DNA of 64,000 nt from Candidatus Poribacteria bacterium (lineage in GTDB: Bacteria > Poribacteria > WGA-4E > WGA-3G), in the NCBI GenBank assembly GCA_963664215.1, contig OY761014.1; one strand, given 5' to 3'. A program made the translations under genes and the position numbers. Shown piece by piece: positions 8,302 through 53,178 of the stretch. Under the pieces are notes generated by a model. It was not told the DNA's origin. It was given only the letters and a program-made list of their open reading frames with translations, and ran no database searches. Position 1 is the stretch's first letter; every line of letters begins with the position of its first letter.

Positions 8302-8390
8302 AAGAATCATCCTTATTATAACTGAGTTACTATTGTTAAAACGATTGGCGACAGCACACATCAATAGACTCCCGATTCGCGATATTGAGG

Positions 8391-13411: not shown

Positions 13412-13617
13412 TCTGCGACACAGTTGCGACTTAACAGAATGTGCTAAAAAGGTTAGGTTCAAATGCTGAATGGATTTACAATCCCTGGATCCGTTCTTAT
13501 TTTGTACGTAAGCGGAGGCAAGACGTGAAGAAGGTTAGTTTTTCATTTTTTTCCTTCCGTGAGGTTTTAGGTTTAAGTTTGAAAATTTTATTCCATAAGA
13601 ACAAGGAGAAAAAACGA

Positions 13618-16446
13618 ATGTTGTCAAAGAAAATGACAGTTTCGTTAATGAGTTTAATCACAATATTTGCTCTTGCTTTCGTGGCTCCTACTGCGATGGC
13701 AGCCTCTGATGGGCCGACGGTGACAATCTCGAGCAAAGATCACCATGCTGACGATGGTAAACAAGTGGCTGCGGGATCTGTTGTCATAACAGTTGAGTTC
13801 AGTGACCCAGTAAACTTTAATACTGATGCTACTGCTGCACCTGAGGACTTTAGACCGGCTGTTGATGTTATGACCATATATACCAACAACGATGGTGTGG
13901 AACAAGCTGCCTTTACTATCGCATGGGTACAAAAGAGTACTCAGAAATACGAAGGAACTGCAACACTTGTGGCTGATCGCAAGGTGATTGTGTATATAGA
14001 AGAAAATGCGGCTACGGCGATCAGCGGTAAGACGTTCGGTAAAGGCAACCAGGCAGTGAATTATAGTTTCAGTGTAATCGCAGCGGATAACGGAGAGCCC
14101 TATCCAGTCAGAATGAAGCGACTCCCCCCTGAATCTGGATTTATGGCGGATAAAGTCTCTGGTGCCTTTGATGTTAAGATCGTGCTGAGTGAAAAACCGA
14201 AAGAGTTCACAGCAGCGAATATCGGAGTCAAAAATGGAAGTGTTGGAGCCGTTGTTGCTGGTGGATCTATAGCGCGAATTGACTATATCAGGAACAACGT
14301 AGATGGTAGCCACACTCTTTATGATACTCCTGACAGCACTCCGGCAAATGACCTACCGGACCGGGGCGACACCTTCCCCACTAACTTTGATACTGATGCC
14401 GCGAATAGTGCTCTAAGTCCGGTCGCGACCGGTAACGATGCTAAGTTCTATCTGTATAGAGTGACGATCACGCCGGATTTCAAGAAGGATAAAGTGATTG
14501 TATGGGTCAAAGATTTTGTAGACAGTGCGCTTGACCCCACAAGTAAGTATACGTTGGTCACTGTAAACAAGGTTCCCGATGATCTCGGGGCTGACAAAGC
14601 GAAGTTAGAGGTTAGCGTAGATTTAACTAACGTTGATAAGCCGACTGCGGCAGCTGGCGTGTCTGTAGGAATACCCAATGATACGATCATCCCTGCGGGT
14701 GGGTACTTGGTCGTCGTCCGAGACGATGGAGACGGTGCCGACGAAGTAGAGAAATCCAGTGAAAGCGAAGTCATCCATCCGGGTGATAGAAAAAATGCGA
14801 ATCTTGCTGGGAGTGGTCGGAGTGCGATAAAACAGGCATATAATGTCGTTCCGGTTGATTTGAAGTATAACTTAGAGGGGTTCCTCATTCGCGGTGGCAC
14901 GATAGACCTTATCGCTCCCGATGCGGGTGTGGTGATCTCTGAGATTATGTGGGCGACCGATGGCGGTGAGACGAACCGGCAGTGGATCGAGATTCATAAC
15001 ACCGGGAGCACACAGCTGAAGACCAAAGACTATAAGCTGATGCTCTATACTGCCAACGAGGCACTTCCCCTCATAACGGATGCCACGAAGAAGATCGTAG
15101 ACCGTGTGAGTACGCTCTATAAAGGCACCAACCACTGGTCGATTGCCGGTAAAGGGAAATCGGGTCAAACTGCCGGTGTCATTGAGAGAAGCATTGGCGA
15201 TGGCGATGATGTGGATATAGATATAGAAGTCGTCCAGACCTCCGGACTCGTCTCTATGGAACGTGTGATGGCGGCAGGTGCGTATCTTGATGGCACGATG
15301 GATACCTCTTGGGCGGCCTCTATGCCCCCGAGTTCAAACTTCACGGATGCGGCAGGCGGACTCTTTGTCGGTTCTCCAGGGGCTTCCCCGATCAACCCGG
15401 TCGCAGACCCACCGCCGAAAGAAGACCCGCCGGTCGTCGTACCTCCTGACGTTGCGACCGCTTCTGATATTATGATTACTGAGATCATGGTGGACACCGG
15501 CAATGGTCGCCTCCCACAGTGGATTGAACTCGCAAACTACAGTGGTAAAGTCGTCCGTCTTGATGGGTGGTCTGTTGAGATTACGAACGCCGCAGACGAT
15601 ACCGATGTTGCGGGTAGAGTGAGCCTTGACCTCACCGGTCAGACGCTTGATGTCCGTGAAGGTGCTACCGGCACCCGCGGTGAAGCCCTCCTCTTAGTCG
15701 CTTGGGGCGGTCGGAGCTCCGGCAACCTGAGTGATCGGGTTCTCAACGTCTCCAGCCAATTGAAGAAAACAGGACGCTATACGCTCCTGAGTCCGATGGG
15801 CTTCTTGATCGAACTCCTGCCACCGCAAACCACGGGCATTGTCCAGTTTGGTGATGCGGCAGGAAACCTCGGTGCCGCTACGGCATGGGACCTCCCGATG
15901 TCCGAGAACGGACGGAGTTCACTGATTCGTAAGTTTGATGCTGGGGTCGCGGGGATGGGAGATGATATGAGCGGATGGGTACTCGCAGATGCGACCTCCC
16001 TTCTGAAGACTCCCGCAAGTTGGTATGGCAGTGATGAAGACGCTGGCACCCCCGGTGTTATCGGTGGTGGCCCCCTACCCGTCGAACTTTCACAGTTCCG
16101 TCCCGCACGCGATAAAGCCACCGGCGCAGTCGTGATTACTTGGGCAACGCAGTCTGAGCTGAACAACGCTGGATTCTTCATCAAGCGGGCACAGCAAAAA
16201 GACGGCGAGTTCAAAGTCATCAATGCTACTATGGTTCCAGGTGCTGGCACCACTTCGGAGAAGCAGTTCTATACCTACACGGATACAACTGCTCAACCTA
16301 ACGTCGTATACTACTACCAAATTGAAGACGTGTCCCTTGATGGGAATCGTCAGACGCTGACCCGTGGCATCCGCCTGAAAGGGCATATCGGAGCTGCTGG
16401 GAAACTTACCTCCACATGGGGTGAATTGAAGTCGTCCAATGAGTAG
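13618..16446 (+). CDS. Secreted lamin-tail-domain surface protein, paralogue 2
   Basis: Same architecture as paralogue 1 with swapped variable blocks. Confidence 0.88.
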   Translation: MLSKKMTVSLMSLITIFALAFVAPTAMAASDGPTVTISSKDHHADDGKQVAAGSVVITVEFSDPVNFNTDATAAPEDFRPAVDVMTIYTNNDGVEQAAFTIAWVQKSTQKYEGTATLVADRKVIVYIEENAATAISGKTFGKGNQAVNYSFSVIAADNGEPYPVRMKRLPPESGFMADKVSGAFDVKIVLSEKPKEFTAANIGVKNGSVGAVVAGGSIARIDYIRNNVDGSHTLYDTPDSTPANDLPDRGDTFPTNFDTDAANSALSPVATGNDAKFYLYRVTITPDFKKDKVIVWVKDFVDSALDPTSKYTLVTVNKVPDDLGADKAKLEVSVDLTNVDKPTAAAGVSVGIPNDTIIPAGGYLVVVRDDGDGADEVEKSSESEVIHPGDRKNANLAGSGRSAIKQAYNVVPVDLKYNLEGFLIRGGTIDLIAPDAGVVISEIMWATDGGETNRQWIEIHNTGSTQLKTKDYKLMLYTANEALPLITDATKKIVDRVSTLYKGTNHWSIAGKGKSGQTAGVIERSIGDGDDVDIDIEVVQTSGLVSMERVMAAGAYLDGTMDTSWAASMPPSSNFTDAAGGLFVGSPGASPINPVADPPPKEDPPVVVPPDVATASDIMITEIMVDTGNGRLPQWIELANYSGKVVRLDGWSVEITNAADDTDVAGRVSLDLTGQTLDVREGATGTRGEALLLVAWGGRSSGNLSDRVLNVSSQLKKTGRYTLLSPMGFLIELLPPQTTGIVQFGDAAGNLGAATAWDLPMSENGRSSLIRKFDAGVAGMGDDMSGWVLADATSLLKTPASWYGSDEDAGTPGVIGGGPLPVELSQFRPARDKATGAVVITWATQSELNNAGFFIKRAQQKDGEFKVINATMVPGAGTTSEKQFYTYTDTTAQPNVVYYYQIEDVSLDGNRQTLTRGIRLKGHIGAAGKLTSTWGELKSSNE

Positions 16447-16542: not shown

Positions 16543-16837
16543 ACAGATCAGAAATATATTGTGTGTCTGTGTGAATGTTCGTATTAGGAAACGTTCCATG
16601 AGGATTGTCAAGATGCTTTCAATACTCACTGCCGCGCACCTTGCCTAACTTGAAGTTTCCCAAAGGCCTCCAGATATTGAGACTACTGAATGGATTTACA
16701 ATCCCTGGATCCGTTCTTATTTTGTACATAAGCGGAGGCAAGACGTGAAGAAGGTTAGCTTTTCATTTCTTCGCTTCCGTGAGGTTTTAGGTTTAAGTTT
16801 GAAAATTTTATTCCATAAGAACAAGGAGAAAAAACGA

Positions 16838-19657
16838 ATGTTGTCAAAGAAAATGACAGTTTCGTTAATGAGTTTAATCACAATTCTCGCGCTCGTTTTC
16901 GTGGCTCCTTCTACGATGGCAGCCTCTGATGGGCCGACGGTGACAATCTCAACCGCAGACCATCATGCTGACGATGGTAAACAGGTGGAAGCGGGAGATG
17001 TTGTCATAACAGTTGAGTTCAGTGACCCAGTAAACTATAATGGTGCAGATGCAAATACTACTGCTCCAGCTGCTGACTTTACACCGACTCAAGATGTTGC
17101 AATCGTATATACCGACAACGATGGCGTGCAACAAACAACACCCAGTATCACATGGGCCCAAAAGAGTACTCAGAAATACGAAGGAACTATAGGCCTTGCT
17201 ATTGATCGCAAGGTGATTGTGTATGTAGAGGAAAATGCGGCTACGGCGATCAGCGGTAAGACGTTCAGTAAGGGCAACCAGGCAGTGAATTATAGTTTCA
17301 GTGTAATCGACGTGGATTTCGGAGATCCCTACCCTGTCAGAATGAAGCGACTCCCCCCTGAATCTGGATTTATGGCGGATAAAGTCTCTGGTGCCTTTGA
17401 CGTTAAGGTTGTGCTGAGTGAAAAGCCGAAAGAGTTCACAGCAGCGAATATCGGAGTCAAAAATGGGAGTGTTGGCACCGTTGTTGCTGGTGGGTCCATA
17501 TCGCGCTGGCAGTATCTCAAGAACAATGAGGATGGTAGCTACGATCTTTATTTTGATGCTACGGACAATAATATACCTGCGCGTAACACTATTACCGCTA
17601 CTACTGCTCTTGGTGCCTTTGATCCGTCACCCACTGGTAGAGACGATAAGTTCTATCTGTATAGAGTGAGGATCACGCCGGATTTCAAGAAGGATAAAGT
17701 AATTGTATGGGTCAAAGATTTTGTAGACACTGCGCTTGATCCCTATAAGTATACGTTGGTCACTGTAAACAAGGTTCCCGATGATCTCGGGGCTGACAAA
17801 GCGAAGTTAGAGGTTAGCGTAGATTTAACTAACGTTGATAAGCCGACTGCGGACCCTGGCGTGTCAGTAGGGATACCCAATGATACGATCATCCCTGCGG
17901 GTGGGTACTTGGTCGTCGTCCGAGACGATGAAGACGGTACTGATGAGGCAGAGAAATCCAGCGAAAGCGAGGTCATCCATCCGGGTGATAGAAAAAATGC
18001 GAATCTTGCTGGGAGCGGTCGGAGTGCGATAAAACAGGCCTACAACGTCGTCCCCGTTGATTTGAAATATGACTTAGAGGGGTTCCTCATTCGCGGTGGC
18101 ACGATTGATCTCATCGCCCCAGATGCTGGTGTGATGATCAGTGAAATCATGTGGGCAACCGATGGCGGGAATAATAAGCGTCAGTGGATTGAGATTCATA
18201 ACACGGGGAGCACACAGCTGAAGACCAAAGACTATAAGCTGATGCTCTATACTGCCAACGAAGCATTCAAAGATATGAGCGTTGCTGCCAACAATATCCA
18301 AGACCGTGTGAGTACGCTCTATAAAGGCACCAACCACTGGTCGATTGCCGGTAAAGGGAAATCGGGTCAAACCGCGAGTATCATTGAGAGAAGCATTGGC
18401 GATGGCGATGATGTGGATATAGATATAGAAGTCGTCCAGACCTCCGGACTCGTCTCCATGGAACGTGTGATGGCGGCAGGTGCGTATCTTGATGGCACGA
18501 TGGATACCTCTTGGGCGGCCTCCATTCCCCCGAGTTCAAACTTCATGGACGCAGCAGGTGGACTCTTTGTCGGTTCTCCAGGGGCCTCCCCCATCAACGC
18601 AGTCGCAGATCCGGCTCCCGCACCTGAACCCACACCCGCACCGGTCATCCCCGTTGCGATGGCTTCTGATATTATGATTACTGAAATCATGGTAGACACC
18701 GGCAACGGTCGCCTCCCACAGTGGATTGAACTCACAAACGTCTCTGGCGCAGAAAAACGCCTTGATGGGTGGTCTGTTGAGATCGAAAACGCTGCGGATG
18801 CGAATGTGGTTGGGAATACTGTGAGCCTCAACTTGAGCGGCACCCTCGGTGTCGGTGGTGGCACAGGTGCTGGCGGCACGCTCGGTAAAACGCTTCTATT
18901 GGTCGCTTGGGGCGGTCGAAGTTCTGGCAACCTCACAGGAAGTGATCGGGTTATCAATGTCTCCAGCCAGTTGAAGCAAAAGGGACGCTATACCCTCCTG
19001 AGTCCGATGGGTTTCGTGATCGAACTGCTCCCACCTCAAACTACAGGTATTGTCCAGTTTGGCGACACGGTAGGCAACCTTGGTGCCGCTACGGCATGGG
19101 ACCTCCCGATGGACGAGACAGGTCGGAGTTCACTCATTCGTAAGTTTGATGCGGGTGTAGCAGGAATGGGAACGGATGTTAGCGGATGGACGCTCGCCTC
19201 CAGCACATCCCTCCTCAAAGCTCCCGCAACATGGTATGGCAGCGATGAAGATGCTGGCACCCCCGGTGTTGTCGGTGGTGGACCCCTGCCCGTCGAACTC
19301 TCACACTTCCGTCCCGCACGCGATAAAGCGACTGGACAAGTCGTGATTACTTGGGCAACGCAGTCCGAACTCAACAACGCTGGGTTCTTCATCAAGCGCG
19401 CACAGCAACGAAACGGTGAGTTCAAGGTTGTCAATCCCACGATGATCGCCGGTGCTGGCACAACAAGTGAAAAGCAGTTCTATACTTATACGGATACAAC
19501 TGCGCAACCTAACGTCGTATACTACTACCAAATTGAAGACGTGTCCCTTGATGGGAATCGTCAGACGCTCACCCGTGGCATCCGCCTCAAAGGGCATATC
19601 GGTGCCGCCGGAAAACTTACCTCCACGTGGGGTGAATTGAAGTCGTCCAATGAGTAG
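16838..19657 (+). CDS. Secreted lamin-tail-domain surface protein, paralogue 3
   Basis: Same architecture; SD aaggag before MLSKK. Confidence 0.88.
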   Translation: MLSKKMTVSLMSLITILALVFVAPSTMAASDGPTVTISTADHHADDGKQVEAGDVVITVEFSDPVNYNGADANTTAPAADFTPTQDVAIVYTDNDGVQQTTPSITWAQKSTQKYEGTIGLAIDRKVIVYVEENAATAISGKTFSKGNQAVNYSFSVIDVDFGDPYPVRMKRLPPESGFMADKVSGAFDVKVVLSEKPKEFTAANIGVKNGSVGTVVAGGSISRWQYLKNNEDGSYDLYFDATDNNIPARNTITATTALGAFDPSPTGRDDKFYLYRVRITPDFKKDKVIVWVKDFVDTALDPYKYTLVTVNKVPDDLGADKAKLEVSVDLTNVDKPTADPGVSVGIPNDTIIPAGGYLVVVRDDEDGTDEAEKSSESEVIHPGDRKNANLAGSGRSAIKQAYNVVPVDLKYDLEGFLIRGGTIDLIAPDAGVMISEIMWATDGGNNKRQWIEIHNTGSTQLKTKDYKLMLYTANEAFKDMSVAANNIQDRVSTLYKGTNHWSIAGKGKSGQTASIIERSIGDGDDVDIDIEVVQTSGLVSMERVMAAGAYLDGTMDTSWAASIPPSSNFMDAAGGLFVGSPGASPINAVADPAPAPEPTPAPVIPVAMASDIMITEIMVDTGNGRLPQWIELTNVSGAEKRLDGWSVEIENAADANVVGNTVSLNLSGTLGVGGGTGAGGTLGKTLLLVAWGGRSSGNLTGSDRVINVSSQLKQKGRYTLLSPMGFVIELLPPQTTGIVQFGDTVGNLGAATAWDLPMDETGRSSLIRKFDAGVAGMGTDVSGWTLASSTSLLKAPATWYGSDEDAGTPGVVGGGPLPVELSHFRPARDKATGQVVITWATQSELNNAGFFIKRAQQRNGEFKVVNPTMIAGAGTTSEKQFYTYTDTTAQPNVVYYYQIEDVSLDGNRQTLTRGIRLKGHIGAAGKLTSTWGELKSSNE

Positions 19658-25740: not shown

Positions 25741-25803
25741 TCTACGGAATGACACATCAAATCCCAAACCCGCCTGACCGAACCGCAAGGTAAAATTAAA
25801 AGT
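25741..25803 (+). repeat. ~65-bp dispersed element (copy 1 of 3)
   Basis: tacggaa..tccc..ccgcct..cgaaccgcaagg.aaaattaaaa; also at 61773-61833 and 63137-63197. Confidence 0.7.
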
Positions 25804-26569
25804 CGTAGTCGAGGGTCCAAAGATTTGCAATTTCCCTCTCAAGGACTCCTCCAAACGTCTGGAAACCGACATCTAACGTGCCAGTGAGTTCCAAGTGCGT
25901 GCCGAGTTCCCAAGACGAGCTCAACGTCGCGATCAACTGATGCACCGCGTCCTCGGCACCCGATAGCTCCGGCATCCCTTGTAACCGCACATGCGCAAAA
26001 GACAGATCAAACTCAGCCTCGATGAGCGCGTTCACAGAATTTCCAGCCGCGATGCTAAGCCCTGTCGGCGCAGGATGTATACCGCTCAGCCCTAAACCCG
26101 CTAACATAGATACATCATATCCGTTATCTTCAAGCGTTTTTAAGGCATTCGGCGGACCGAACACCCCTCCGTTCCTGCCGAAAATACCGAAAGAGACCTG
26201 CGCATCCCCGAACGTCCGACCGAACTTCGCACCGATGTCCGTGGCACGTCCCAAATCGGAGACGCTGTATCCTTTGACGTTCATTTTCGTGAAGATCCCC
26301 GCATCGAAACCCGCGACCGGCACAGAGACTTCCAAATGAGACTTACCGAGAATCTGATCGCCCCCTTGCACTGTCGCATCCAAATCACACTTCGCGGCAC
26401 CCATCTCAAACGGGATGTCCGCAGACGCACCCCATGAGACATCCGGTCCGATCTGGTTCACTGAGAGCCCGATACTCCGATCCGCATCCGCATTCACACT
26501 CAAAAACATCACCAGCGCGAGAAGCAACGCGCCCCACAAACCATTCTTGCGACTGTTCTGAAAAAACAT
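25796..26569 (-). CDS. Exported protein, putative outer-membrane beta-barrel (moron-like)
   Basis: Signal peptide ending VNADA; alternating hydrophobic strands; C-terminal ..LWTLDYDF ending in Phe. Confidence 0.5.
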   Translation of the reverse strand: MFFQNSRKNGLWGALLLALVMFLSVNADADRSIGLSVNQIGPDVSWGASADIPFEMGAAKCDLDATVQGGDQILGKSHLEVSVPVAGFDAGIFTKMNVKGYSVSDLGRATDIGAKFGRTFGDAQVSFGIFGRNGGVFGPPNALKTLEDNGYDVSMLAGLGLSGIHPAPTGLSIAAGNSVNALIEAEFDLSFAHVRLQGMPELSGAEDAVHQLIATLSSSWELGTHLELTGTLDVGFQTFGGVLEREIANLWTLDYDF

Positions 26570-26763: not shown

Positions 26764-27010
26764 GTATCTGGTAAAATCTCAAGGAGATGAAGAAGAAGTT
26801 GACCTCAACGACGCTGAGGATATCCACGAAGTGAGTGCCCGCAGTGGGCATTTTACCGCATAGGTGTATCACCACAAACGTCCGCATTCGACGTTAGGAA
26901 ACCATTTGACCCTTGTGGAATTTGAGCAACAAAAACGGTGGTACTTCACTGGATGCATATTATATTTACGTAATAGCGATTTGAATAACTGATAATTCGC
27001 GCGTTTTGTC

Positions 27011-27039
27011 TTGCTAAAAAGCAGGGAAAATGATATAAT
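27011..27039 (+). promoter_or_regulatory. Sigma70 promoter of GIY-YIG cassette 1
   Basis: TTGCTA-17-TATAAT. Confidence 0.75.
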
Positions 27040-27041
27040 AT

Positions 27042-27192
27042 AGGAAGGTAGTGGGAAGGGGGCGTAACCCCTTCCCGATGCCAGAAACAATCAACCAAGT
27101 CACTACACCGGAATCTTGCTTTGGCATTTTCATTTTAACACACTTCCTTTTGAAATGTCAAGCGAGGTCCCTAAACCTACAGGAGCTTGACA
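27042..27192 (+). ncRNA. Conserved pseudoknotted leader of GIY-YIG cassette 1
   Basis: aggaag/cttcct outer stem; gtagtg/cactac; gggaagggg-gcgtaa-ccccttccc; atgcca/tggcat crossing pair; tgtcaagc/gcttgaca hairpin abutting the SD; homologous to 42663-42814. Confidence 0.6.
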
Positions 27193-27194
27193 GT

Positions 27195-27974
27195 ATGGGT
27201 TCTATCTACAAAATCACCAATACAGTGAACGGGAAGTCTTACATCGGTCAAACGATTCACGATGCTGAGAAGACGAGAATACGCCAACATCTCACTAGCA
27301 ATAGCAAAGGCAGCCGACGTATCAAGGACGACATTGAGAAATACGGACAAGACGCTTTCACCTACGAGATACTTCATGATGGCATTCTTCCTGAATTTCT
27401 GAATATGCTTGAGAAGGAAGAGATTGCGAGATTCAACACAGTCTCACCACACGGCTATAATCAGACGAGTGGTGGTGAAGGCGGTTCACTCTCCGAGGAA
27501 ACCCGTCGTAAAATATCTGAGGCTCATAAAGGTAAAAAGTTTTCAGAAGAACACCGTCAGAACATCTCGGAAGCTGCCAAAGGTAGACCTGCTCCTAATA
27601 AGGGTATACCTCACTCTGAAGAAGCCAAACGCAAAATGTCGGAAGTCAAGAAGGGTAGACCTGCTCTCAATAAAGGGGTACCCCATACAAAAGAAGCCAA
27701 ACGTAAAATATCGGAAGCTGCCAAAGGTAGACCTGCTCCTAATAAGGGTATACCTCACTCCAGAGAAACTAAAGAAAAAATCAGTCTTGCGAATAAAGGC
27801 AATCCTGCCCATAATAAAAGCCCTTACTATGAGGACGCACGTCAATTCTTTTCTCTGCTGCCACCTGACATGGATATGACTGAAAAAAGACGTTTACTTT
27901 TAGAAAAATTTTCGGATGTTGTCTATTGGAGTACAATCTACCGTTGGGTTAAAAAGTGGAGTCAGCACGACTAA
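27195..27974 (+). CDS. Free-standing GIY-YIG endonuclease with NUMOD3-like repeats and a C-terminal HTH-like domain
   Basis: SIYKITNTVNGKSYIGQT; GYNQTSGGEG; HSEEAKRKMSE repeats; TIYRWVKKW; SD aggag. Confidence 0.9.
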   Translation: MGSIYKITNTVNGKSYIGQTIHDAEKTRIRQHLTSNSKGSRRIKDDIEKYGQDAFTYEILHDGILPEFLNMLEKEEIARFNTVSPHGYNQTSGGEGGSLSEETRRKISEAHKGKKFSEEHRQNISEAAKGRPAPNKGIPHSEEAKRKMSEVKKGRPALNKGVPHTKEAKRKISEAAKGRPAPNKGIPHSRETKEKISLANKGNPAHNKSPYYEDARQFFSLLPPDMDMTEKRRLLLEKFSDVVYWSTIYRWVKKWSQHD

Positions 27975-27983
27975 AATCATTTC

Positions 27984-29474
27984 CTACTGCTCCGCCACCC
28001 GGAAAGACAAAATTTCTCCTCCCGTCTTATCATCGGTGCGGTACCTCACCGGCACCCGCTCGCCCACAAACGTCGCTGGAAAAATCCGCCAGGGGAATCG
28101 CGATGGCTCCATTGCGTGGACGTGGTTACGGTTCTCCGCACGCCAATACAAAAACTCTTCGGGCGTTTCCAAAAGCGTTTTCCCAGGCACCACCTTCACC
28201 GCATAGTCGATCTCCCATTTATCGCGCGCCGCACCCAGAGGAGCCCCGTAGCCGAGACTGCCCCCCGGTGCTGAAGAAATCTCTCCTTCACGATCTACAA
28301 AGTCGGGGTTGATCTCCGTAAAATCACCGTTCGCATCTATGGAAATCCCAAACTCCAAAAGTAGTATCTCATAGACTTCGACCCCAGCACCTTCAAACTG
28401 CATCCGCACCGATGTCGCCGTGAAATGCGCGTCCAGCAACAATAAATGGTGTTGGAACCCCGCAACCGTCGTAGAGACCGCTGTCCCTTCCCAGTTCGTT
28501 ACCGTCGCCGGCAGGTCCACATCCGTCCACCCGCGACCCGAACCCCCCGTCGGGGTCCCCGAATGCCGAGTCACGCCCTTACACTTCACAAAGACAGCGT
28601 CCACCCGCGTCGGTTGACCGTTCATAGCGATGTTGATGTCATAATCCCTTTTCGTTGAGAACGTCCGGTAATCGTTATCCGCAACTGCACGCAGAATGTT
28701 AGACGCGTTCCCATGCTCGGTCACACGCGCCCCATCCTCGAAATAATTCACGCATTCCTTGAAGAACAGCGCATTGTGAAGGGATGCAATCGGTGTATAC
28801 ACCGTCAGACTGCTGCGCACACTTATACCGAGTGCCGTCCGGGCTCTAACCCCAAAGGTGTATTGCGTGCCACGGTTGAGATCCCGGAAGCTATAGCGCC
28901 GATCGGTTTTACCGGTGTTGACCCAATTGGCAGCGTTTAGGGATGTGCCTTCCGTGATATTGACTTCATAAGCAATAACATCAGGGACAGAATCCCATGT
29001 CATGAAGCCAGCCCTACCACTACTGAAACTCACTTCTAAATCCTGTTCATAGTCGAACCGAACCCGAACCCACCCACCTGTGATATTTGTGGCGATCCCA
29101 ACGCCTATCCAAAAGTAACGTCCCACATCTGCATCCACAACCTCCCCAGAATGCCACATCGCGGTATAGTTATTATTTGACCAATGGGGTCCATCTGACC
29201 ATGGGATCACCGTCCCGTCGCTGTTATTATCCGGAGGCGACCCATCTTTATAGTGAAGCACGCCAGCAGCCCCAGCCGACTGTTGGATATTCGCATCAAT
29301 ACGCAGGTCTCCCAACCCGCGCCCCTGCGTAACTTTCAGCGCAGCACCACCGAAATCAAGCGCGACTAACTCCAAACCGGGAGTCGCGGCGTGCGATTCT
29401 TGTAGGTGATAGGCTTCTGTGGACGCAAGGTTCGCATTCACCGATACGTTCCCAGAATCAAATTGCGTAGCCAT
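27984..29474 (-). CDS. Phage tail-associated protein with an FN3-like domain
   Basis: TWDSVPDVIAYEV...YSFRDLNRGTQYTFGVRA; last gene of the tail module. Confidence 0.65.
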   Translation of the reverse strand: MATQFDSGNVSVNANLASTEAYHLQESHAATPGLELVALDFGGAALKVTQGRGLGDLRIDANIQQSAGAAGVLHYKDGSPPDNNSDGTVIPWSDGPHWSNNNYTAMWHSGEVVDADVGRYFWIGVGIATNITGGWVRVRFDYEQDLEVSFSSGRAGFMTWDSVPDVIAYEVNITEGTSLNAANWVNTGKTDRRYSFRDLNRGTQYTFGVRARTALGISVRSSLTVYTPIASLHNALFFKECVNYFEDGARVTEHGNASNILRAVADNDYRTFSTKRDYDINIAMNGQPTRVDAVFVKCKGVTRHSGTPTGGSGRGWTDVDLPATVTNWEGTAVSTTVAGFQHHLLLLDAHFTATSVRMQFEGAGVEVYEILLLEFGISIDANGDFTEINPDFVDREGEISSAPGGSLGYGAPLGAARDKWEIDYAVKVVPGKTLLETPEEFLYWRAENRNHVHAMEPSRFPWRIFPATFVGERVPVRYRTDDKTGGEILSFRVAEQ

Positions 29475-36080: not shown

Positions 36081-39000
36081 TCAGATATTCACCCGTCCAT
36101 TGAGTTGCTCCGTCCGAGACTGTTGCTCCAACAGAATATTATCGTTCAACGTTACAGGCACTGTAACCTCAATCGTTTGCGGGGGCGCAGCAGCAGGCGC
36201 ACGACTCGGTAAAGCAAGTCCCCCTGACACATGCACCGTGTTCCCCGACACACTGATCGTATCCGCAGTCAACACCGACGGGGACACGGGCTCCGCAAAC
36301 ATAGCTATCGCGTCTTCGATTTTCGCTGTCAATTCTAACGGGTCTACCGCTAAGCCCCCATTCAAAGTGGACAGCCCTTCCACCGTCGCCCGCAAATCCG
36401 CAGCAGGCTCCCCAAGCGCATCTACAATATCACTGAATGTCTCCGAGACCGTCTCAATACGCCCCAAGGGTCCAACAATATCCGGTAACGTCCCAACGGC
36501 TGCGTTTGCCGCCGTCGTCGCATCTCTTGCCGCAATCGCTGCATCGTTTGCCGCCGTCGCTGCGTCTTTTGAGGCAACCGCCGCATCCGAAGATACCATT
36601 ACCGCATCCGATTCAGGTTGCAAAAGCGGCGCGAGTGCCTCGCTCAGTGCCGTTGCCGTCGCCTGTGCTTGTGTTTCGATGTCCGCACGCTCGGTCTCCG
36701 TCCGTGCCTCCACATCCGCAACCGATCGCTGGTTCTGGAGATACTCATCCAGCCCGCGCCGTCCAAACACCCGTTCAATAAAGTTCTCATCCGTCAACCC
36801 ACCGCTTTCCAACTCCTGCCGATAGAAGTCGTACCCTGGACTTCCCGGTGTCAGGATCCCGAACTCCGTTTGGAAGTCCTGTACATCCCGATCCCGCTGA
36901 CGGTTTAGATCAAAAAGTTCCCGCTGATACGTGTCGTCCTCCGTAAGACGAGATCGCTGATCCGCTGTGAGATCCCCGAACTCCTCATCGAACAACCGCC
37001 GTGCCGTCTCTGTTTGTAAATCTTGGAGGTCGCGCTGATACTCCCGCTGGATGTCCTCTGCCGTCTGATTCCGATCCCGTTGTAAATCGTCAAGGTCTTC
37101 ATGGAACTGTTCTTCCAACGCAAGAAGACGGTCCTTGTGAGCTTCGTTCAATTTCTCAATCGCGTCTAAACGGTCTGCCTCGTTCTCTATCTGCGCGTCG
37201 CGCACCTCTTCAATCTCATCTTGCCGACGTGCCTCACGTGCGATCGCATCCTCGCGGAGTCGTTCTATCTCGGCTTGTGCACTTTCTTCGTCTCGGAGTC
37301 GATCCCGCGTAAACTGGTTCTGGGCAGTCGTCGCTCTACGCAACGCCTGCTCACGCCGCAACTGGTTGTCTTGGCGTAAGTTTTTTAGTGCTGTCTCGGA
37401 TAACGCTAATTCATCGATACGTTTCAGCTCATTGTCATAAAAAGCATTGATCGCACGGATCAGTGAACGCCTCGCCTCTTCAAAGCCCCGTTCCGTCGTC
37501 GCACCTGTCAGATTGAAACGCGCCCGTGCAACCGCATTTTCCAATAGGTTCGATTCAGGTGTGTCTTCAAGACGCGTGCGTGGCGGTGCGACCTCTTCTG
37601 TAGGGGTATCTGCTGTGGGAGGGGTTTCTAACCCCGATTCCCTTGTGGGAGAGGTTTCTAACCCCGACTCCCTGATTGCTAATGCCGTGCCTTGTAGAAA
37701 CCCCGAAGCCTCCGTAAATGCGTTCTCTAACGCAAAGCCTACGTCCTCAAGATTGGAAACCAACCGTAGATTCGCATCAAAAAGCCGATCTGTGAACTCG
37801 TTGGTGTACCGCGTCCGCGCATTCGCTAACGCATCTTCCGTGAAGATACCCACACCCGCTTCTATAAACGCTAACTGCTGATCTCGATACGCGCTTTCCG
37901 CTTCACCGAGTCGTGTATACGCCGCCGTGATGTCCGCCGGTGCGCTGTCTTCGCCTAATAGACGGATGGCATTTTCTGCGGATGTAATGTCGCCTTGCAA
38001 CGTCCGAAGGTGGTCCCGCTGCTGTGCCGTGAATCGGAAAACCTCTGCTGGGGGTTCCGGTTCGACCTCTTCTGCTGTGGGAGGGGTATCTGCTGTGGGA
38101 GGGGTTTCTAACCCCGATTCCCCTGTGGGAGAGGTTTCTAACCCCAACTCCCTGATTGCTAACGCTGTGCCTTGTAGAAATCCTGAAGCCTCTGTAAATG
38201 CGTTCTCTAACGCAAAGCCGACATCCTCGAGATTGGAGACCAACCGCAGGTTCGCATCAAAAAGCCGATCCGTGAACTCGTCGGTATACCGTGTCCGCGC
38301 ATTCGCTAACGCATCCTCCGTAAAAAGTCCCACGCCCGCTTCTATAAACGCTAACTGCTGATCCCGATACGCCGTTTCTGCCGCACCGAGGCGTGTATAC
38401 GCTGCCGTGATTGCGGCTGGGGTGCTGTCTTCGCCTAATAGACGGATAGCGTTTTCTGCCGACGTAATGTCGCCTTGCAGCGTCCGAAGCAGGTCCCGCT
38501 GTGGTCCCGTGAATCGGAAAACCTCTGTCGGGGGTTCCGGTTCGAGAACTTGTGGTGTTTCCGTTGGCGCGTCGTCCCCAATCGGCTGCACGACCGCCTG
38601 CTCAGGTGCTTGAATGTCAACAATCTCTTCAGGAATCCGTTGCACTTGGAGTGCCGCCCCTGAAAGGATACCCGACATATTCCGGATCGCCGTTACTAAC
38701 TGGAATCCAACGGCTTCCAGAGCATCTAAGAGCTCGCCGTTCGCCGCTTCAATCTCGTTACCGAACCGCTGACCTGCAAGCGTCAACGCACGCTGTCTCG
38801 CGTCTTCCGTGATGTGCGTCGCGTCCGTGATGAAAGCAACGATTTGCGTCTGGACTGCTTCTTGCGCATTCGCTAAATCCGTGTATGCTCTGGTAATCTC
38901 TTGGGGTGTGCTGGTGGCATCGAGGTCATCCACAACGCCCTGTGCGATCGCAACAGTTTCCTCAAGCGGTGCTAACACCCGCCGCTGCTCCGGTGAAAGC

Positions 39001-42000
39001 CTGAAAATGTTTTCGAGTGCCTCGGTCGCCGCCGCTACGGTCTCTTCAACCACCGCCCCGACATCCGAAACGACATCCGAAACGCCTGTCCCTTGGGCTG
39101 CTGCGACTTCAGCCTCATACGCCGCCTCACCATACTGCGCACGGGCGACATCTTCTATCGCCTGTCTGTCCGTGCCAGTGGCTTCGGCAATCTGACGCGC
39201 AGTCAACTCACCTCTTTGCCCCTCGCTTTGCAGCTGACGGATAGTGTTTAATTGCTCGTTGCGTGCGTCGTTGAGCTCCTGGATGACATCAAATTGTTGG
39301 GTACCGAACAACGCATTGAAGATGTTCATCGCTTCCTGCTGCGCATCAAAAAATTGGTTCGTTGCATGCAGTGCCCTGTTCCTGAAATGGTCGACATTCT
39401 CACCTGTGGCAAGCGCATCTTCATAATCCGATACCGCGGCGTTCATCCCTTGCTGCAATTGCGTGGCGATCGGGTCAAAGATGTTCCGAAGATGTGTTTC
39501 GATGACATCTATATCCGTAATGCCGATCAGCTGCTCCAAAAGCGACTGGATAATCTGCCCATCGAAGTTCGTCGTGCCACCAGCCGTCTCTTGCGCCGAC
39601 CGAACCCCACGCGCAAAATGCCTGACGACCGCAAGACGCGCCTGCTCATCTTCAAAAGCGTCCCGGTTGCGCGCTTCAAAGTCTCTTCGCGCCTGCCTCG
39701 CTTCTTCGCCTTGCCTGAAAATATTATAGGGGAGTAGCACGGCTTGGGAAATGTCGCCTTGCGCAAACTTGACGAGACTCTCTACATTCTCCGCAACGTC
39801 CGATAACGCACTCCCGGAATCAAACGCAACATCCGCAAACGCCGTCGCAAGTTTACCTAACGCACCAATCGCATCTCCGATCGGGTCCTCTAAATCTCGA
39901 AACTTGTCACCCGCATCCGCCGTGCCGTCGGCAACTTCAGCCACGACCGTATCCAAACTCTCAAAAGCACGCTCGGTGAGTTCCGCGCCCTGTTTCGATG
40001 CATCCAGCGCAGTCGTCAAGTCCTCAACAGCAGGGGTTGTCTCTCTGTCAACGACATCCGTAAAGTCGATATGACTTCTTTTTGAGGTATCCAAGGCATC
40101 ACTGTAATCGTAAAGCCGTGCCTCCGCTTCCCGAAAATCCGCAGTCCCTGTCTTGACAGTCTCGCTGACTTGGTTTAAAGGGCCAAGCGCTGCGTCCGCA
40201 GCAACCGATGTCGCTTCTAACTCAGCAACATACGCCGCAAGCGGATCGTCTAACCCATCAAAGAACCCGGCAGTGTGCAACGCTTCTAACTCGGCTTGAT
40301 GATCGACCACCGAAACCGTCGCAAGGTCCACCGCTGTCGTGTATTCACCGACTTCACCCGCCGCAACTCGCCAGAAATCATCGAACCCTTCTAATTCTTG
40401 GTTGAGATTCTCAAATTCCCGGATATGCCGCTGCGCCGCCGAAATCACACCCAAATATTCTGTGAACGCAACCGCGGCGGTCTTGACGGCTGTTCCCTGT
40501 TCTTCTGTTGCGGCTGTCGTCGCATCCGTCCCATCCTTCAGTGTGCCTAACCGGGATGTCGCCTTGTCGATCTCCGTGTTGAGTTCAGACTGGCGATCTT
40601 TCGCGGCACCCAATTGACGCTCATATTGCTCGATCGCAGGGTTCGTCTCACCAACTGCCGTGTCTTTCGCATTCTGGAGCAACCCTTCATACCGTTCGAC
40701 CTCCGCATTCGCGCTCCGAAGCTCTGTCTGTAAGTCCGAAAGCCGCGCCTGCTGCTCCTGTGCCAACGTCGCATTCTCACCTAACGCCGCCGATGCACCC
40801 CCGAACGCCATCTCCAGTTTCTCGATCTCTGCCGTCAATTCCGGGACACGCGCACGTGCCGTTTCAAGCAGCCGCGCAAACTGTTCCGTTGACTGATTCG
40901 AGATGCCGGCTTCCGATGCTTTCCGTAGCTCTTCCTCATACCGCGCTATATTCGCAGTCGTCTGCTCCAGTTCAGTCTGTAATGCCTTGAGTCTCGCACG
41001 CCCCACATCTCCTGCAGTCGCATGTTCTTCAAGTGCCGCCGTCGCCGATGCCACGGATTGCGCCAACCGATCCGTCGACTCGGACGCTTGGGCACCCTCG
41101 TCGCGCCAGAACATTATGAACTCTACAGCATCTGCCACCCCGCCGATGAAAGCCGTCAGGTGATCCGAAAGTTGTGCTATGCCTGCCCCAAGCGCGCCGA
41201 TAGCATACGCAGTTCCCTGTATAATAGGATTCAAGAGATTCACCAGCGCACCGGCAAGTTCTAAGACCTCGCCTAACAACCCGCCAAGTGAATCCGCTAA
41301 CGCACCGATAGGGGGTCCCACTATCCGAATCAGCGCACCCCCGAGCTCCTGCAATGCCTCGAACAGCGACTGCGCACCCGCAATAATCTCCTGTATCGGT
41401 TCCGGCAACGTCGAAACATCTTTCGTGCCAACACGAACCACATCCAGGAATTCCGATAACACACGTGCAGCATCCGTAATGGTCGGGAGGAACAGGTCCC
41501 CAATTGCCGCTTTGGTCAGAAGTATCGAGTTCTGGAGTGTGTCTATTACAACGATATAACTGTCCGCGGGCGGAGCATCAAAACGTCTTGATAACTCATC
41601 AAACGTCGGAATCAACAGGTCCCGGATGCTCCCCCCAACTCTCCGATACGCCGCATGCAATCCCTCAAGGTTCGCTTCTACACCGTGAACATCGCCAAGT
41701 GCCTCCAAGAAGCCAGGAATTTGTTGCACGATGGTGCGAAAGTCGCGGAAGTCAACTTTCCCCAGCTGCACTGCCTGGATCAACTGCTCCATCGCTAACG
41801 AAGCCGTCGACGCATTGCCACCCAAGGACACAATCGTCTGACCGACCGTCAACAGAATCTTGTCTGTGTCCTCCGCACCTAACCCCGCGGCACGGAGTCT
41901 ATTGGAGTAACGCGTCAACGCTTCAAAGTTCAACCCCGGCAAGTTCGCAATCTCAATCAGAGACTCAAGCCGTTTCTCTGCTGCTTCCGAACTCCCTTCA

Positions 42001-42419
42001 ATCTGGGTGATCGCCCGTGTGTATTGCTCTAACCGACCCGCCGCTTGAATGCTCTCAATCCCGAAACGACCGATCTGATGGCCAACCGCCGCAACGCCTA
42101 ACGCCCCCAGCACGCTTCCCGCGCCACTCAGCGAACGCGTAAATACGCCAACCCCCCGGTTAGCGAACCCGATCGCCCCCGTGAGTTCCGTTGCCCCCCT
42201 GCCCGTGCGCCGAAACCGATTCCCAAGCCCCTCGACCTCACGCGCAGTTTCACGCGCCTCGTCACCCAGCCTATCAACACCCGTCGCCGCATTATTCGCA
42301 GCACCCTGCGTCTGCCCCAATTGCTGACGCAGCTCACGCACCTCACCCTGGAGTTGCTCGATCTCGGTGCGGGCTTTCTTTGAGTCGGCTCTGAAGCGGA
42401 TTTGTACATCAGCAGGCAT
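36081..42419 (-). CDS. Tail tape measure protein (2112 aa)
   Basis: N-terminal coiled coil; tape-measure motif (LPGLNFEAL..LAMEQLIQAVQLGKV); Ala/Glu-rich helical body; position after the chaperones. Confidence 0.92.
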   Translation of the reverse strand: MPADVQIRFRADSKKARTEIEQLQGEVRELRQQLGQTQGAANNAATGVDRLGDEARETAREVEGLGNRFRRTGRGATELTGAIGFANRGVGVFTRSLSGAGSVLGALGVAAVGHQIGRFGIESIQAAGRLEQYTRAITQIEGSSEAAEKRLESLIEIANLPGLNFEALTRYSNRLRAAGLGAEDTDKILLTVGQTIVSLGGNASTASLAMEQLIQAVQLGKVDFRDFRTIVQQIPGFLEALGDVHGVEANLEGLHAAYRRVGGSIRDLLIPTFDELSRRFDAPPADSYIVVIDTLQNSILLTKAAIGDLFLPTITDAARVLSEFLDVVRVGTKDVSTLPEPIQEIIAGAQSLFEALQELGGALIRIVGPPIGALADSLGGLLGEVLELAGALVNLLNPIIQGTAYAIGALGAGIAQLSDHLTAFIGGVADAVEFIMFWRDEGAQASESTDRLAQSVASATAALEEHATAGDVGRARLKALQTELEQTTANIARYEEELRKASEAGISNQSTEQFARLLETARARVPELTAEIEKLEMAFGGASAALGENATLAQEQQARLSDLQTELRSANAEVERYEGLLQNAKDTAVGETNPAIEQYERQLGAAKDRQSELNTEIDKATSRLGTLKDGTDATTAATEEQGTAVKTAAVAFTEYLGVISAAQRHIREFENLNQELEGFDDFWRVAAGEVGEYTTAVDLATVSVVDHQAELEALHTAGFFDGLDDPLAAYVAELEATSVAADAALGPLNQVSETVKTGTADFREAEARLYDYSDALDTSKRSHIDFTDVVDRETTPAVEDLTTALDASKQGAELTERAFESLDTVVAEVADGTADAGDKFRDLEDPIGDAIGALGKLATAFADVAFDSGSALSDVAENVESLVKFAQGDISQAVLLPYNIFRQGEEARQARRDFEARNRDAFEDEQARLAVVRHFARGVRSAQETAGGTTNFDGQIIQSLLEQLIGITDIDVIETHLRNIFDPIATQLQQGMNAAVSDYEDALATGENVDHFRNRALHATNQFFDAQQEAMNIFNALFGTQQFDVIQELNDARNEQLNTIRQLQSEGQRGELTARQIAEATGTDRQAIEDVARAQYGEAAYEAEVAAAQGTGVSDVVSDVGAVVEETVAAATEALENIFRLSPEQRRVLAPLEETVAIAQGVVDDLDATSTPQEITRAYTDLANAQEAVQTQIVAFITDATHITEDARQRALTLAGQRFGNEIEAANGELLDALEAVGFQLVTAIRNMSGILSGAALQVQRIPEEIVDIQAPEQAVVQPIGDDAPTETPQVLEPEPPTEVFRFTGPQRDLLRTLQGDITSAENAIRLLGEDSTPAAITAAYTRLGAAETAYRDQQLAFIEAGVGLFTEDALANARTRYTDEFTDRLFDANLRLVSNLEDVGFALENAFTEASGFLQGTALAIRELGLETSPTGESGLETPPTADTPPTAEEVEPEPPAEVFRFTAQQRDHLRTLQGDITSAENAIRLLGEDSAPADITAAYTRLGEAESAYRDQQLAFIEAGVGIFTEDALANARTRYTNEFTDRLFDANLRLVSNLEDVGFALENAFTEASGFLQGTALAIRESGLETSPTRESGLETPPTADTPTEEVAPPRTRLEDTPESNLLENAVARARFNLTGATTERGFEEARRSLIRAINAFYDNELKRIDELALSETALKNLRQDNQLRREQALRRATTAQNQFTRDRLRDEESAQAEIERLREDAIAREARRQDEIEEVRDAQIENEADRLDAIEKLNEAHKDRLLALEEQFHEDLDDLQRDRNQTAEDIQREYQRDLQDLQTETARRLFDEEFGDLTADQRSRLTEDDTYQRELFDLNRQRDRDVQDFQTEFGILTPGSPGYDFYRQELESGGLTDENFIERVFGRRGLDEYLQNQRSVADVEARTETERADIETQAQATATALSEALAPLLQPESDAVMVSSDAAVASKDAATAANDAAIAARDATTAANAAVGTLPDIVGPLGRIETVSETFSDIVDALGEPAADLRATVEGLSTLNGGLAVDPLELTAKIEDAIAMFAEPVSPSVLTADTISVSGNTVHVSGGLALPSRAPAAAPPQTIEVTVPVTLNDNILLEQQSRTEQLNGRVNI
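37600..38560 (-). repeat. Two near-identical ~480-bp (160-aa) internal repeats in the tape measure, each with a REP cluster
   Basis: EPEPP.EVFRFT..QRD.LRTLQGDITSAENAIRLLGED.. x2; REP clusters at 37600-37672 and 38077-38152; a more diverged third unit at ~38600-39010. Confidence 0.9.
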
Positions 42420-42630
42420 AGTAAATCCTTGTAGCGTAGACGGTTCATCTGCCCCTGATAAGGGGGATTACTTGAGCATCAAACTTTCCAGTTTGTGGCA
42501 CTTTTCACAGTCAATCAGAGAATATCCGAAGGCGGATACATGCTTACAGAAACGTCGTTTTATCTCTTGAAAGACAAGACACTGCGGCTCCTAAACGGGC
42601 AATTTGTGTCAATTGCGAATTGATTTTTTC

Positions 42631-42659
42631 TTGCTAAAAAGTGGGGAAAGTGCTATAAT
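42631..42659 (+). promoter_or_regulatory. Sigma70 promoter of GIY-YIG cassette 2
   Basis: TTGCTA-17-TATAAT. Confidence 0.75.
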
Positions 42660-42662
42660 AAT

Positions 42663-42814
42663 AGGAAGGTAGTGGGAAGGGGGCGTAACCCCTCCCCGAT
42701 GCCAGAAACAATTAACCTAAGTCGCTAAACTCGGATCTTGCTAAAGGCATTTCTATTTTAACAAACCTTCCAAAGAAATGTCAAGCGAGGTCCCCAAACC
42801 ATAGGAACTTGACA
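42663..42814 (+). ncRNA. Conserved pseudoknotted leader of GIY-YIG cassette 2
   Basis: Homologue of 27042-27192; tagtg/cgcta (G-U substitution keeps pairing), atgcc/ggcat, ggaagg/ccttcc, tgtcaag/cttgaca. Confidence 0.6.
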
Positions 42815-43945
42815 ATGGGCTGCATCTATAAAATCACCAATACGGTGAACGGTAAAAGTTACATCGGACAAACAATTCACGATGCCGTGAAAACTCGGAT
42901 ACGTCAGCATCTTAATGGGTATCCGCATGGAAGCAAACTTGTCAAAAAAGCCATTGCGAAATACGGTAAAGACGCTTTCACATATGAGATACTTCATGAT
43001 GGTATTATTCCTGAATTCCTTGAAACCCTTGAAATTGAAGCGATTGAGAAGTTCAATACGCTCGCTCCATACGGATACAACCTTCAGATGGGAGGCTCTC
43101 ACAGCTCACCCTCAGCGGAAACACGTCGAAAAATCTCTGAGGGAAATAAAGGTAAAACGCGCTCGGAGGAAACAAAACAAAAAATGTCTGAAGCCGGTAA
43201 AGGCAGAAAACATTCAAAGGAAACCAGACGGAAACTTTCTAAAGCACATAAAGGTAAAAAGCTTTCCAAAGAACACCGACGGAAAATCTCGGAAGTACAA
43301 AAAGGTAAATATGTCTCAGCGGAAACGAGGCGAAAAATGTCCGAGAACAGCGCATCGAAACGCCCTGAAGTTCGGCAGAAAATTTCTGAAGCTAACAAAC
43401 GTAGAGTCTATAAACCTCACTCAGAAGAAGCCAAACGCAAAATGTCTGAATCACGCAAAGGTAGAAAATTTTCAGAAGAACACCGAAGGAAACTCTCAGA
43501 AGCACTTACAGGTAAAACTGTCTCAGAGAAAACTCGGCAGAAACTTTCTGAAGCCAACAAAGGTAAAACGATTTCAGACGAAACCCGACGGAAACTCTCG
43601 AAAGCCGGTAAACGTAGAAAGCTTTCAGAAGAACACCGCCGAAAAATATCTGAAGCACATAAAGGCAAAAAGCATTCAGACGAAACGAGGCGGAAAATAT
43701 CTGAAGCCGGTAAAGGCAAAAAGGCGTGGAACAAAGGCAAAAGGCACTCAGACGAAACGAGGCGGAAAATATCTGAATCACGCAAAGACGAAAGGTATTT
43801 ACCATCACGCAACTTGTTCTTTTCCCTTCCTGACACACTTTCACTAAAAGAAAAACGTAAAATCTTATTGAAAAAGTTTTCAGATGTTGTAAAACCAGGT
43901 ACACTTTACCGTTGGATACGCCAATGGAACTCTGAAGAAAATTAA
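42815..43945 (+). CDS. Free-standing GIY-YIG endonuclease with many NUMOD3-like repeats
   Basis: CIYKITNTVNGKSYIGQT; more than 10 S.E(T/H)RRK(I/L/M)SE repeats; C-terminal TLYRWIRQW. Confidence 0.92.
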   Translation: MGCIYKITNTVNGKSYIGQTIHDAVKTRIRQHLNGYPHGSKLVKKAIAKYGKDAFTYEILHDGIIPEFLETLEIEAIEKFNTLAPYGYNLQMGGSHSSPSAETRRKISEGNKGKTRSEETKQKMSEAGKGRKHSKETRRKLSKAHKGKKLSKEHRRKISEVQKGKYVSAETRRKMSENSASKRPEVRQKISEANKRRVYKPHSEEAKRKMSESRKGRKFSEEHRRKLSEALTGKTVSEKTRQKLSEANKGKTISDETRRKLSKAGKRRKLSEEHRRKISEAHKGKKHSDETRRKISEAGKGKKAWNKGKRHSDETRRKISESRKDERYLPSRNLFFSLPDTLSLKEKRKILLKKFSDVVKPGTLYRWIRQWNSEEN

Positions 43946-45026: not shown

Positions 45027-45094
45027 AAATGTTTCCTATTTAGAGTTGTCAGTCGTCGTAGGGGCGAGGTCGCCTCGCCCTTACAGAGGTCTGT

Positions 45095-53172: not shown

Positions 53173-53178
53173 ATTGAT

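Follow-up and report, generated by a model that had tools for sequence, protein, structure and literature searches.

The 64,000-nucleotide (nt) stretch of Candidatus Poribacteria contig OY761014.1 (assembly GCA_963664215.1) that was analyzed here, referred to below as the window, carries two copies of a segment of ~190 base pairs (bp), each placed immediately before a gene for a GIY-YIG/NUMOD3 homing endonuclease. Homing endonucleases are selfish nucleases, which have to be expressed enough to spread and not enough to harm the phage. The repeated segment probably (we put the odds slightly above even, at about 0.55) constitutes the self-contained control head of a mobile nuclease cassette, in which occlusion of translation is combined with an outward-reading promoter. 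What is new is the layout of face-to-face promoters around a multi-helix leader; control over the expression of free-standing homing endonucleases is already known.

Alignment of window positions 26950-27260 with 42570-42880 demonstrates that 27004-27194 and 42624-42814 are homologous, with ~88% identity, and the 30-mers and 20-mers of the repeat have exactly two exact matches in the window (zero expected). A first-pass annotation, made from the letters of the window and their translations, had described 27011-27194 and 42631-42814 as homologous segments with non-homologous flanks. The alignment and the exact-word counts both bear out the homology. The upstream flanks are indeed unrelated, with similarity setting in at the T-rich run directly before the -35 box (about 27004 and 42624), whereas on the right the homology runs on into both coding regions, so that the difference is limited to the left flank. 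In copy A, a putative plus-strand promoter, P(+), at 27011..27039 is followed by the leader of endonuclease gene A (its 5' untranslated region, about 150 nt and non-coding) at 27040..27194 and by the gene itself at 27195..27974 (259 amino acids, aa); the corresponding elements of copy B, also on the plus strand, lie at 42631..42659, 42660..42814 and 42815..43945 (376 aa).

By their sequences, nucleases A and B fit free-standing, Seg-like GIY-YIG homing endonucleases, with a catalytic domain, DNA-binding repeats, an intergenic site and presence/absence polymorphism. The N-terminal GIY-YIG domain (Pfam PF01541) scores 28.0 and 27.8 bits in A and B, respectively (cut-off 22.6), a SegE_GIY-YIG match is present in A (27.7 bits), and NUMOD3 scores 79.7 bits in A (4 stretches) and 156.2 bits in B (7 stretches). 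As first noted from the window alone, the two proteins differ in NUMOD3 repeat number, through repeat expansion, and have C-terminal regions in common, homologous over about 45 aa; the only repeats reported by Tandem Repeats Finder, at 27567-27779, are NUMOD3-coding. A C-terminal module, F.SLP.DM...K....L...FP.V...T...W..KW, occurs once in the other nucleases and three times in tandem in the nuclease at L008:3181-4149, which has few NUMOD3 repeats. Both nuclease genes are on the plus strand and the neighboring phage genes (terminase, portal, major head protein and two giant open reading frames (ORFs), one of them tape-measure-like) on the minus strand, placing the cassettes in intergenic positions between flanking genes of the opposite orientation. 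At the gathering threshold, the window gave no Rfam match to a group I or group II intron or to any other family, and a tRNA/tmRNA scan of it found none; a PDB sequence search with nuclease A and a blastn search against a phage collection also returned no match.

To place the cassette in a family, copies were gathered by pattern scans and by protein-guided retrieval. In total, 25 distinct copies of the leader (23 close and 2 distant) were found in Poribacteria-associated phage contigs, drawn from Candidatus Poribacteria-binned contigs (the bacteria being sponge symbionts), IMG/VR viral contigs and ENA metagenome assemblies; several of the ENA contigs that carry the leader are labeled circular, at 88-141 kb. 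Sponge metagenome assemblies contain 3807 relatives. A GIY-YIG gene, lying antisense in one or another intergenic gap among phage structural genes, is linked to the leader in 23/23 close copies, four of which have an ORF of 112-124 aa between leader and nuclease gene, and the two distant copies (L005:499-699 and L016:3639-3773) precede other ORFs. Among related phages, this cassette (type A) sits in four different gaps of one gene row (synteny table), and at least five distinct neighborhoods contain an identical nuclease. Matching sites are empty at window positions 45027-45094 and 46898-46935 and at L012:228-481. Furthermore, one public assembly contig joins 26768 to 28048, skipping 26769-28047, and is thus without copy A, in what looks like a cassette-free allele. 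The search for cassette-free alleles proposed in the first-pass annotation has therefore yielded three empty sites and one contig that skips copy A, and its description of a self-contained promoter, structured leader and GIY-YIG cassette not only stands but generalizes, through the linkage in all close copies and the presence/absence polymorphism. Comparison of the copies thus shows both the leader-nuclease linkage and the mobility: judged from these sequences, the cassette is mobile and the leader is part of it. Exact cassette boundaries were sought by comparing filled and empty sites, which gave no crisp junctions, the intergenic DNA being too diverged.

Several further observations concern these loci. 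The gap at 45027-45094 is filled by a type-A cassette in L008, and that at 46898-46935 in L002, L011 and L012; the empty gap at 45027-45094 contains a G/C hairpin, GGGGCGAGG-TCG-CCTCGCCCT, that is not in the filled allele. Another public contig has 739 extra bases at 26988/26989, just upstream of P(+) in copy A. The 112-124-aa ORF (L013:3870-4238, L016:6940-7308, L017:4229-3855 and L005:3738-4076) has no Pfam match and is absent from the window; the 51-nt spacer that follows it contains a 7-bp G/C hairpin and a CCUU/AAGG stem at the Shine-Dalgarno (SD) sequence of the nuclease gene. The notion that the leader drives non-nuclease cargo was rejected, as the GIY-YIG gene follows the 112-124-aa ORFs.

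P(+) reads TTGCTA-17-TATAAT in each window copy, as the first-pass annotation had it, and both copies also have a TG extended -10; in copy A it is a sigma70-type element with a 10/12 consensus match and a T-rich run before it. A promoter scan places the best consensus match in each window copy on the minus strand (11/12, again with a TG extended -10), in an element that the first-pass annotation had missed. This element, P(-), reads TTGACA-18-TGT-TAAAAT and occupies 27132..27161 in copy A (TTGACA at 27161-27156, with the -10 hexamer ending at 27132) and 42755..42784 in copy B. Its hexamers are the complements of the most conserved blocks of the leader, UGUCAA and AUUUUA. P(+) is conserved in 25/25 copies as TTGCTA-17-TGnTATAAT, and the P(-) arrangement is likewise kept in 25/25, with a spacing of 17-18 nt and a -10 of TAAAAT, TATAAT or TATACT accompanied by TGn. 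Where the plus-strand block AUUUUAACA has been lost, the -10 of P(-) reads TATAAT (L054) or TATACT (L065/66), and the two distant copies, which have an unrelated spacer and no SD hairpin, yet retain both the -35 (TTGACG, TTGATA) and the -10. The apparent invariance of AUUUUAACA is itself partly an artefact of the search pattern, and it was protein-based retrieval that found copies without it. The comparison thus shows two promoter-like elements, from which we infer promoter activity; the pattern at P(-) is difficult to account for unless the promoter is functional, and such a promoter would also explain much of the conservation of the leader.

The predicted starts of P(+) (near 27046 in copy A and 42666 in copy B) and P(-) (near 27125 and 42748) put the two promoters face to face on opposite strands, so their transcripts would overlap by ~85 nt at their 5' ends, across the P2 and P3 hairpins of the leader. 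P(-) of copy A would read left, toward 25796-26569, and that of copy B toward the 2112-aa tape-measure-like gene at 36081-42419. In 10/23 close copies no more than 3 nt separate the module edge from the ATG of the phage gene on the opposite strand, making P(-) the nearest promoter for that gene. The predicted minus transcript starts with the complements of P3 and P2, that is, with two hairpins, and no minus-strand terminator was predicted after the P(-) start in either window copy. In copy B, the complement of the IYKIT-coding sequence (42848-42834, minus strand) resembles a terminator, with a hairpin and a U-run, just upstream of P(-).

The structure of the leader on the plus strand was assessed by comparing the copies. 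MAFFT alignments A4 and A6 misplaced P2, and RNAalifold on A4 found little; a covariance model was therefore built and the 23 close copies were realigned (alignment A8). In the conformer that combines helices P1, P2 and P3 with the SD hairpin, 92.5% of the cells are paired (≤46% in slid-partner controls) and 15 pairs show double changes, compared with 7.9 ± 1.6 in shuffles (0/500 reach 15), both figures being generous because the realignment was fitted to the structure. P2 (27053..27076 in copy A and 42674-42697 in copy B) is a 9-bp G/C-rich stem, GGGAAGGGG/CCCCUUCCC, with a 6-nt loop, and could fold on either strand. Its support is strong: compensatory changes affect 7/9 pairs, and at least seven different stems with unrelated loops occur among the copies, so that the 9-bp hairpin originally proposed at 27053-27076 is well supported by covariation. 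The P2 cells include 11 A.C on the plus RNA (G.U on the minus RNA) against 3 G.U, and P2 therefore fits the plus RNA no better than the minus RNA. The P3 domain (27078..27127 in copy A), with a base stem AUGCCAGA/UUUGGCAU and a variable interior hairpin, is conserved and 88% paired, shows no double changes, and folds on the minus RNA too.

The SD hairpin at the 3' end of the leader (27156..27192 in copy A and 42779-42814 in copy B) has an outer stem, UGUCAAGC/GCUUGACA, and an inner stem, AGGU/ACCU in copy A. For the inner stem the support is moderate, from two pairs with double changes (G-C to U-A in six and in two copies). The outer stem is 99.5% paired across the 23 copies and uninformative, being invariant bar one C to U change that retains a G.U pair. 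The first-pass annotation had placed this hairpin adjacent to the SD; it is present in both window copies, but it encloses the SD (AGGAG at 27181-27185, leader positions 142-146, in copy A; AGGAA at 42803-42807 in copy B) instead of abutting it. Two other elements of the fold originally drawn were not confirmed by the comparison. The outer stem P1 (GGAAG/CUUCC) is doubtful, since L065/L066 are unable to form it and shifts in the register of GGAAGG produce what looks like covariation; the pseudoknot GUAGUG/CACUAC, proposed from a change of cacta to cgcta, has 46% of its cells paired over the 23 copies, equal to the shuffled and slid controls. Covariation beyond the two window copies, which the first-pass annotation had set out as a check, is thus found for P2 and the inner SD hairpin, and for the pseudoknot the result is no better than in controls. 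The comparison of leader sequences therefore shows the P2 and inner SD-hairpin structures. No coding function is indicated: leader indels are not multiples of three and no start codon is conserved. A leader peptide (upstream ORF) was considered and rejected, the start codon in the P3 5' arm being AUG, GUG, CUG or GUA depending on the copy; an upstream ORF from the AUG within GAAAUGUCAAGC was likewise rejected, as its third codon positions do not vary and a 2-nt insertion interrupts the frame.

The leader also contains an alternative pairing. By complementarity, the 5' arm of the SD hairpin (AAAUGUCAAGCGAG…) has a second potential partner in the 3' arm of P3 (…CUUGCUUUGGCAUUU), and in the resulting ALT hairpin (27110..27170 in copy A, plus strand), GGAAUCUUGCUUUGGCAUUU pairs with AAAUGUCAAGCGAGGUCC, the ALT-side pairing segments being CUUGCUUUGGCAUUU/AAAUGUCAAGCG. 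The 3' strand of P3 doubles as the 5' strand of the ALT helix, which is mutually exclusive with both P3 and the SD hairpin and leaves the SD free. Minimum-free-energy folds of the 23 leaders flip between P3 plus SD hairpin and ALT, at similar energies. In fixed alignment columns the ALT helix is 90% paired with zero double changes; in L054, L065/66 and L005:499-699 other sequence makes up the part of it next to the loop, and the hairpins rebuilt in this way lie well below shuffled energies (z-scores -3.2 to -5.1). The ALT duplex energy barely differs between cognate and swapped partners (-20.1 vs -18.9 kcal/mol). CUUCC in the ALT loop, which is anti-SD-like, is conserved and is kept even where P1 is impossible. 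From the modeled folds, a leader switch between ALT and the SD hairpin is plausible, not established.

Together, these results suggest the following mechanism. The cassette inserts antisense into intergenic gaps of the phage structural-gene row, with a head of ~190 bp that, from its sequence, carries two face-to-face sigma70-type promoters. P(+) would transcribe the nuclease gene through the ~150-nt leader, and P(-), starting ~85 nt inside the leader, would read outward into the flanking phage gene. The SD-enclosing 3' hairpin should hold nuclease translation low, and pairing of its 5' arm with the 3' arm of P3 instead, in ALT, would free the ribosome-binding site (RBS). Occlusion of the SD would throttle nuclease synthesis, possibly reinforced by convergent transcription and by antisense pairing over the 85-nt overlap, either of which may bias the leader toward its closed state. 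P(-), for its part, would supply a promoter to the phage gene downstream of the insertion and so offset polarity. Within this scheme, the RNA switch and any antisense effect are what we infer from the conserved complementarity and the predicted starts. The idea of an autoregulatory leader, raised in the first-pass annotation, comes close to this best reading insofar as a cis-regulatory role is possible.

A number of observations weigh against this interpretation. The copies are closely related (effective sequence number 2.3) and alignment A8 was fitted to the structure being tested. In fixed columns, compensatory changes are missing from the ALT helix, from P3 and from the outer SD stem; the case for the switch is therefore one of conserved complementarity together with thermodynamic prediction. 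The predicted overlap covers leader positions 1-85 and does not reach the SD, at 142-146, or the start codon. In copy A of the window the next minus-strand gene starts ~430 nt past the module, a distance that makes the role of P(-) in feeding that gene less obvious there. Leader types B and C, described below, are without a comparable minus-strand promoter (a scan of the type-C leader found none). Finally, the runs that hold the sequence look like DNA assemblies, in which no transcript ends can be read.

A related alternative, to which we assign a clearly lower probability, is a bistable riboregulator with its fold set by the antisense P(-) transcript or by a ligand or protein. In the antisense version, the outward transcript would cover leader positions 1-85, hold the 3' arm of P3, block ALT and lock the SD hairpin. 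If this were true, translation of the nuclease would be confined to times of little transcription of the flanking phage gene, and copies within a genome would inhibit one another; taken with leader types B and C, the cassettes would then present a set of dedicated RNA control devices on homing-endonuclease genes.

Somewhat less probable again is a riboswitch-like or protein-binding riboregulator, in which a P1-P2-P3 sensor binds a metabolite or a phage or host protein and sets ALT against the SD hairpin. It would account for the four-segment alternative pairing with near-equal energies and for the invariance of the switch segments, as expected of sequences that have two partners; three structured leader classes before related nuclease genes in the same phages, one with a covariation-supported pseudoknot, are also in keeping with it. 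However, no Rfam family matches even at E = 10, leaving no described aptamer class (searches with leader types A, B and C at E up to 10 gave nothing relevant), and no ligand-related genes are nearby. L065/66 have no P1, both they and L054 carry other sequence in place of the 'conserved' junction AUUUUAACA, and the minus-strand promoter accounts for most of the junction conservation. The case for ligand sensing is weakened in that some copies do without P1 and the junction sequence, and in that P(-) explains why the junction is conserved.

About equally improbable is the proposal that the conservation is purely at the DNA level, reflecting two promoters and a possible operator, with RNA folds that are incidental; the operator might be the inverted repeat TGTCAAGC/GCTTGACA or the P(+) spacer, perhaps bound by the C-terminal domain of the nuclease. 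Conservation of both promoters in 25/25 copies is in line with this, as are the P(+) spacer, AAAAGTGGGGAAAATG, which is more conserved than a promoter needs, the C-terminal module common to all the nucleases, and the precedent of I-TevI, a repressor of its own promoter (PMC2988022). Compensatory changes contradict this view, in P2, where pairing is kept through at least seven different stem sequences with unrelated loops, and in the inner SD hairpin, which covaries. Moreover, a C to U change in GCUUGAUA retains RNA pairing and breaks the DNA symmetry, and ALT stems have been re-invented in the promoter spacer, where DNA-level constraint is weak.

Last, the first-pass suggestion that the leader RNA serves the nuclease as antitoxin, cofactor or guide, as in ToxI/AbiQ-like systems or an RNA-assisted mobile unit, is very improbable: the RNA is structured and always linked to the nuclease gene, and, as in type III toxin-antitoxin systems (ToxIN, AbiQ/antiQ), it lies directly upstream of that gene behind one promoter, but the leader has no repeat array (Tandem Repeats Finder), no terminator or processing signal separates RNA and gene, Pfam finds a GIY-YIG DNA nuclease with NUMOD3 and neither an RNA-binding nor an endoribonuclease domain, the leaders of related nucleases (types B and C) are altogether different, and in four copies an extra ORF stands between leader and nuclease gene.

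The control head is best compared with the homing-endonuclease genes of T-even phages, in which SD-sequestering hairpins precede I-TevI, I-TevII, I-TevIII, segB and Aeh1 mobE (PMC2988022). As in those genes, a stable SD-enclosing hairpin lies just upstream of the nuclease start and presumably limits translation. The statement in the first-pass annotation that free-standing homing endonucleases typically come with no more than a simple RBS hairpin fits the T4 literature (PMC2988022) and makes the elaborate leader described here unusual. In T4, relief comes from a late promoter that gives transcripts without the 5' arm of the hairpin, whereas here no plus-strand promoter lies between the hairpin arms: in copy A the one plus-strand promoter-like site close to the hairpin (27187-27214) is downstream of the SD, and copy B has none. 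The site in copy A, TTGACA-16-CAAAAT, overlaps the start of nuclease gene A and its IYKIT-motif codons. The present leader also differs in its length of ~150 nt, its three further helices, its possible internal anti-hairpin and the cassette's own promoter. T4 seg and mob cassettes carry promoters for neighboring phage genes, and segD lies antisense between genes 23 and 24, with no known promoter (PMC2988022). Both resemble the arrangement proposed here, the former as mobile nuclease cassettes with a promoter for the phage gene downstream of the insertion and the latter as a cassette antisense among structural genes. However, the T4 promoters are inside the nuclease coding region and point in the same direction as the gene, whereas the outward promoter predicted here lies within the 5' leader, on the other strand, and points toward the nuclease promoter.

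For the promoter geometry, the closest formal analogies may be IS10 pIN/pOUT (RNA-IN/RNA-OUT) and coliphage 186 pR/pL, pairs of face-to-face promoters tens of bp apart. Predicted features held in common are overlapping 5' ends, an antisense RNA that opens with a stable stem-loop, and potential transcriptional interference. In IS10 the overlap covers the RBS of the transposase; here, in contrast, it would cover only leader positions 1-85 and not the RBS, and no short terminated antisense RNA is predicted.

A third, more distant GIY-YIG gene, with no NUMOD3 match, lies at 53289-54272 on the plus strand of the window, behind its own promoter-like element (TTGACG-17-TATAAT, 53144-53172) and a leader of about 115 nt (about 53173-53288) that defines type C. 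Across its four copies, the type-C leader forms four helices comprising 29 pairs, 100% paired, with 8 double-change pairs compared with 2.8 ± 1.2 in shuffles. As the double-change pairs include a helix that crosses another, the type-C fold, at about 53180-53255, is a true, covariation-supported pseudoknot. The pseudoknot idea thus holds for the third GIY-YIG gene and not for the two genes for which it was proposed. The 3' arm of the type-C outer stem, AGCAAUAC, is duplicated just before the SD. Type-B leaders were found upstream of related GIY-YIG genes at L064:2392-2500, L067:2392-2500 and L002:2195-2307. Their pseudoknot arms differ completely between copies with complementarity kept (CCUACCA/UGGUAG in one copy; GGUUCAA/UUGAACC or GGUUCA/UGAACC in others), a CUGGCA segment is duplicated, and a small hairpin adjoins the SD; a type-B pattern scan of viral contigs returned only unrelated matches. 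As the more distant GIY-YIG genes in these phages stand behind similar promoters and structured leaders of other types, such leaders emerge as a general trait of the nuclease clade, and the pseudoknotted type-C leader is ready for structural or reporter work.

Two features elsewhere in the window are recorded for completeness. A cassette-like promoter at 8416-8446 on the minus strand, …ACAAAAAATGTCAAAAATGCTATACT, lies upstream of an 843-aa ORF at 5833-8364, and the -10 context AAAATGCTATAMT may mark strong promoters of the phage in general. Three consecutive plus-strand ORFs of ~1000 aa each, with GTG starts (9692-12778, 13441-16446 and 16745-19657), may be paralogues.

The known T4 controls combine promoters borrowed from the phage itself with a single hairpin. 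The cassette described here appears to bring a complete control unit, consisting of its own promoter, a multi-helix leader that hides the RBS, and an opposing promoter able to compensate the host gene in the operon that the cassette interrupts. If confirmed, this arrangement would show how a homing-endonuclease cassette can enter essential structural operons in antisense orientation, at many sites, and cause no polar damage, and it would add three undescribed RNA motifs from the phages of uncultivated sponge symbionts.

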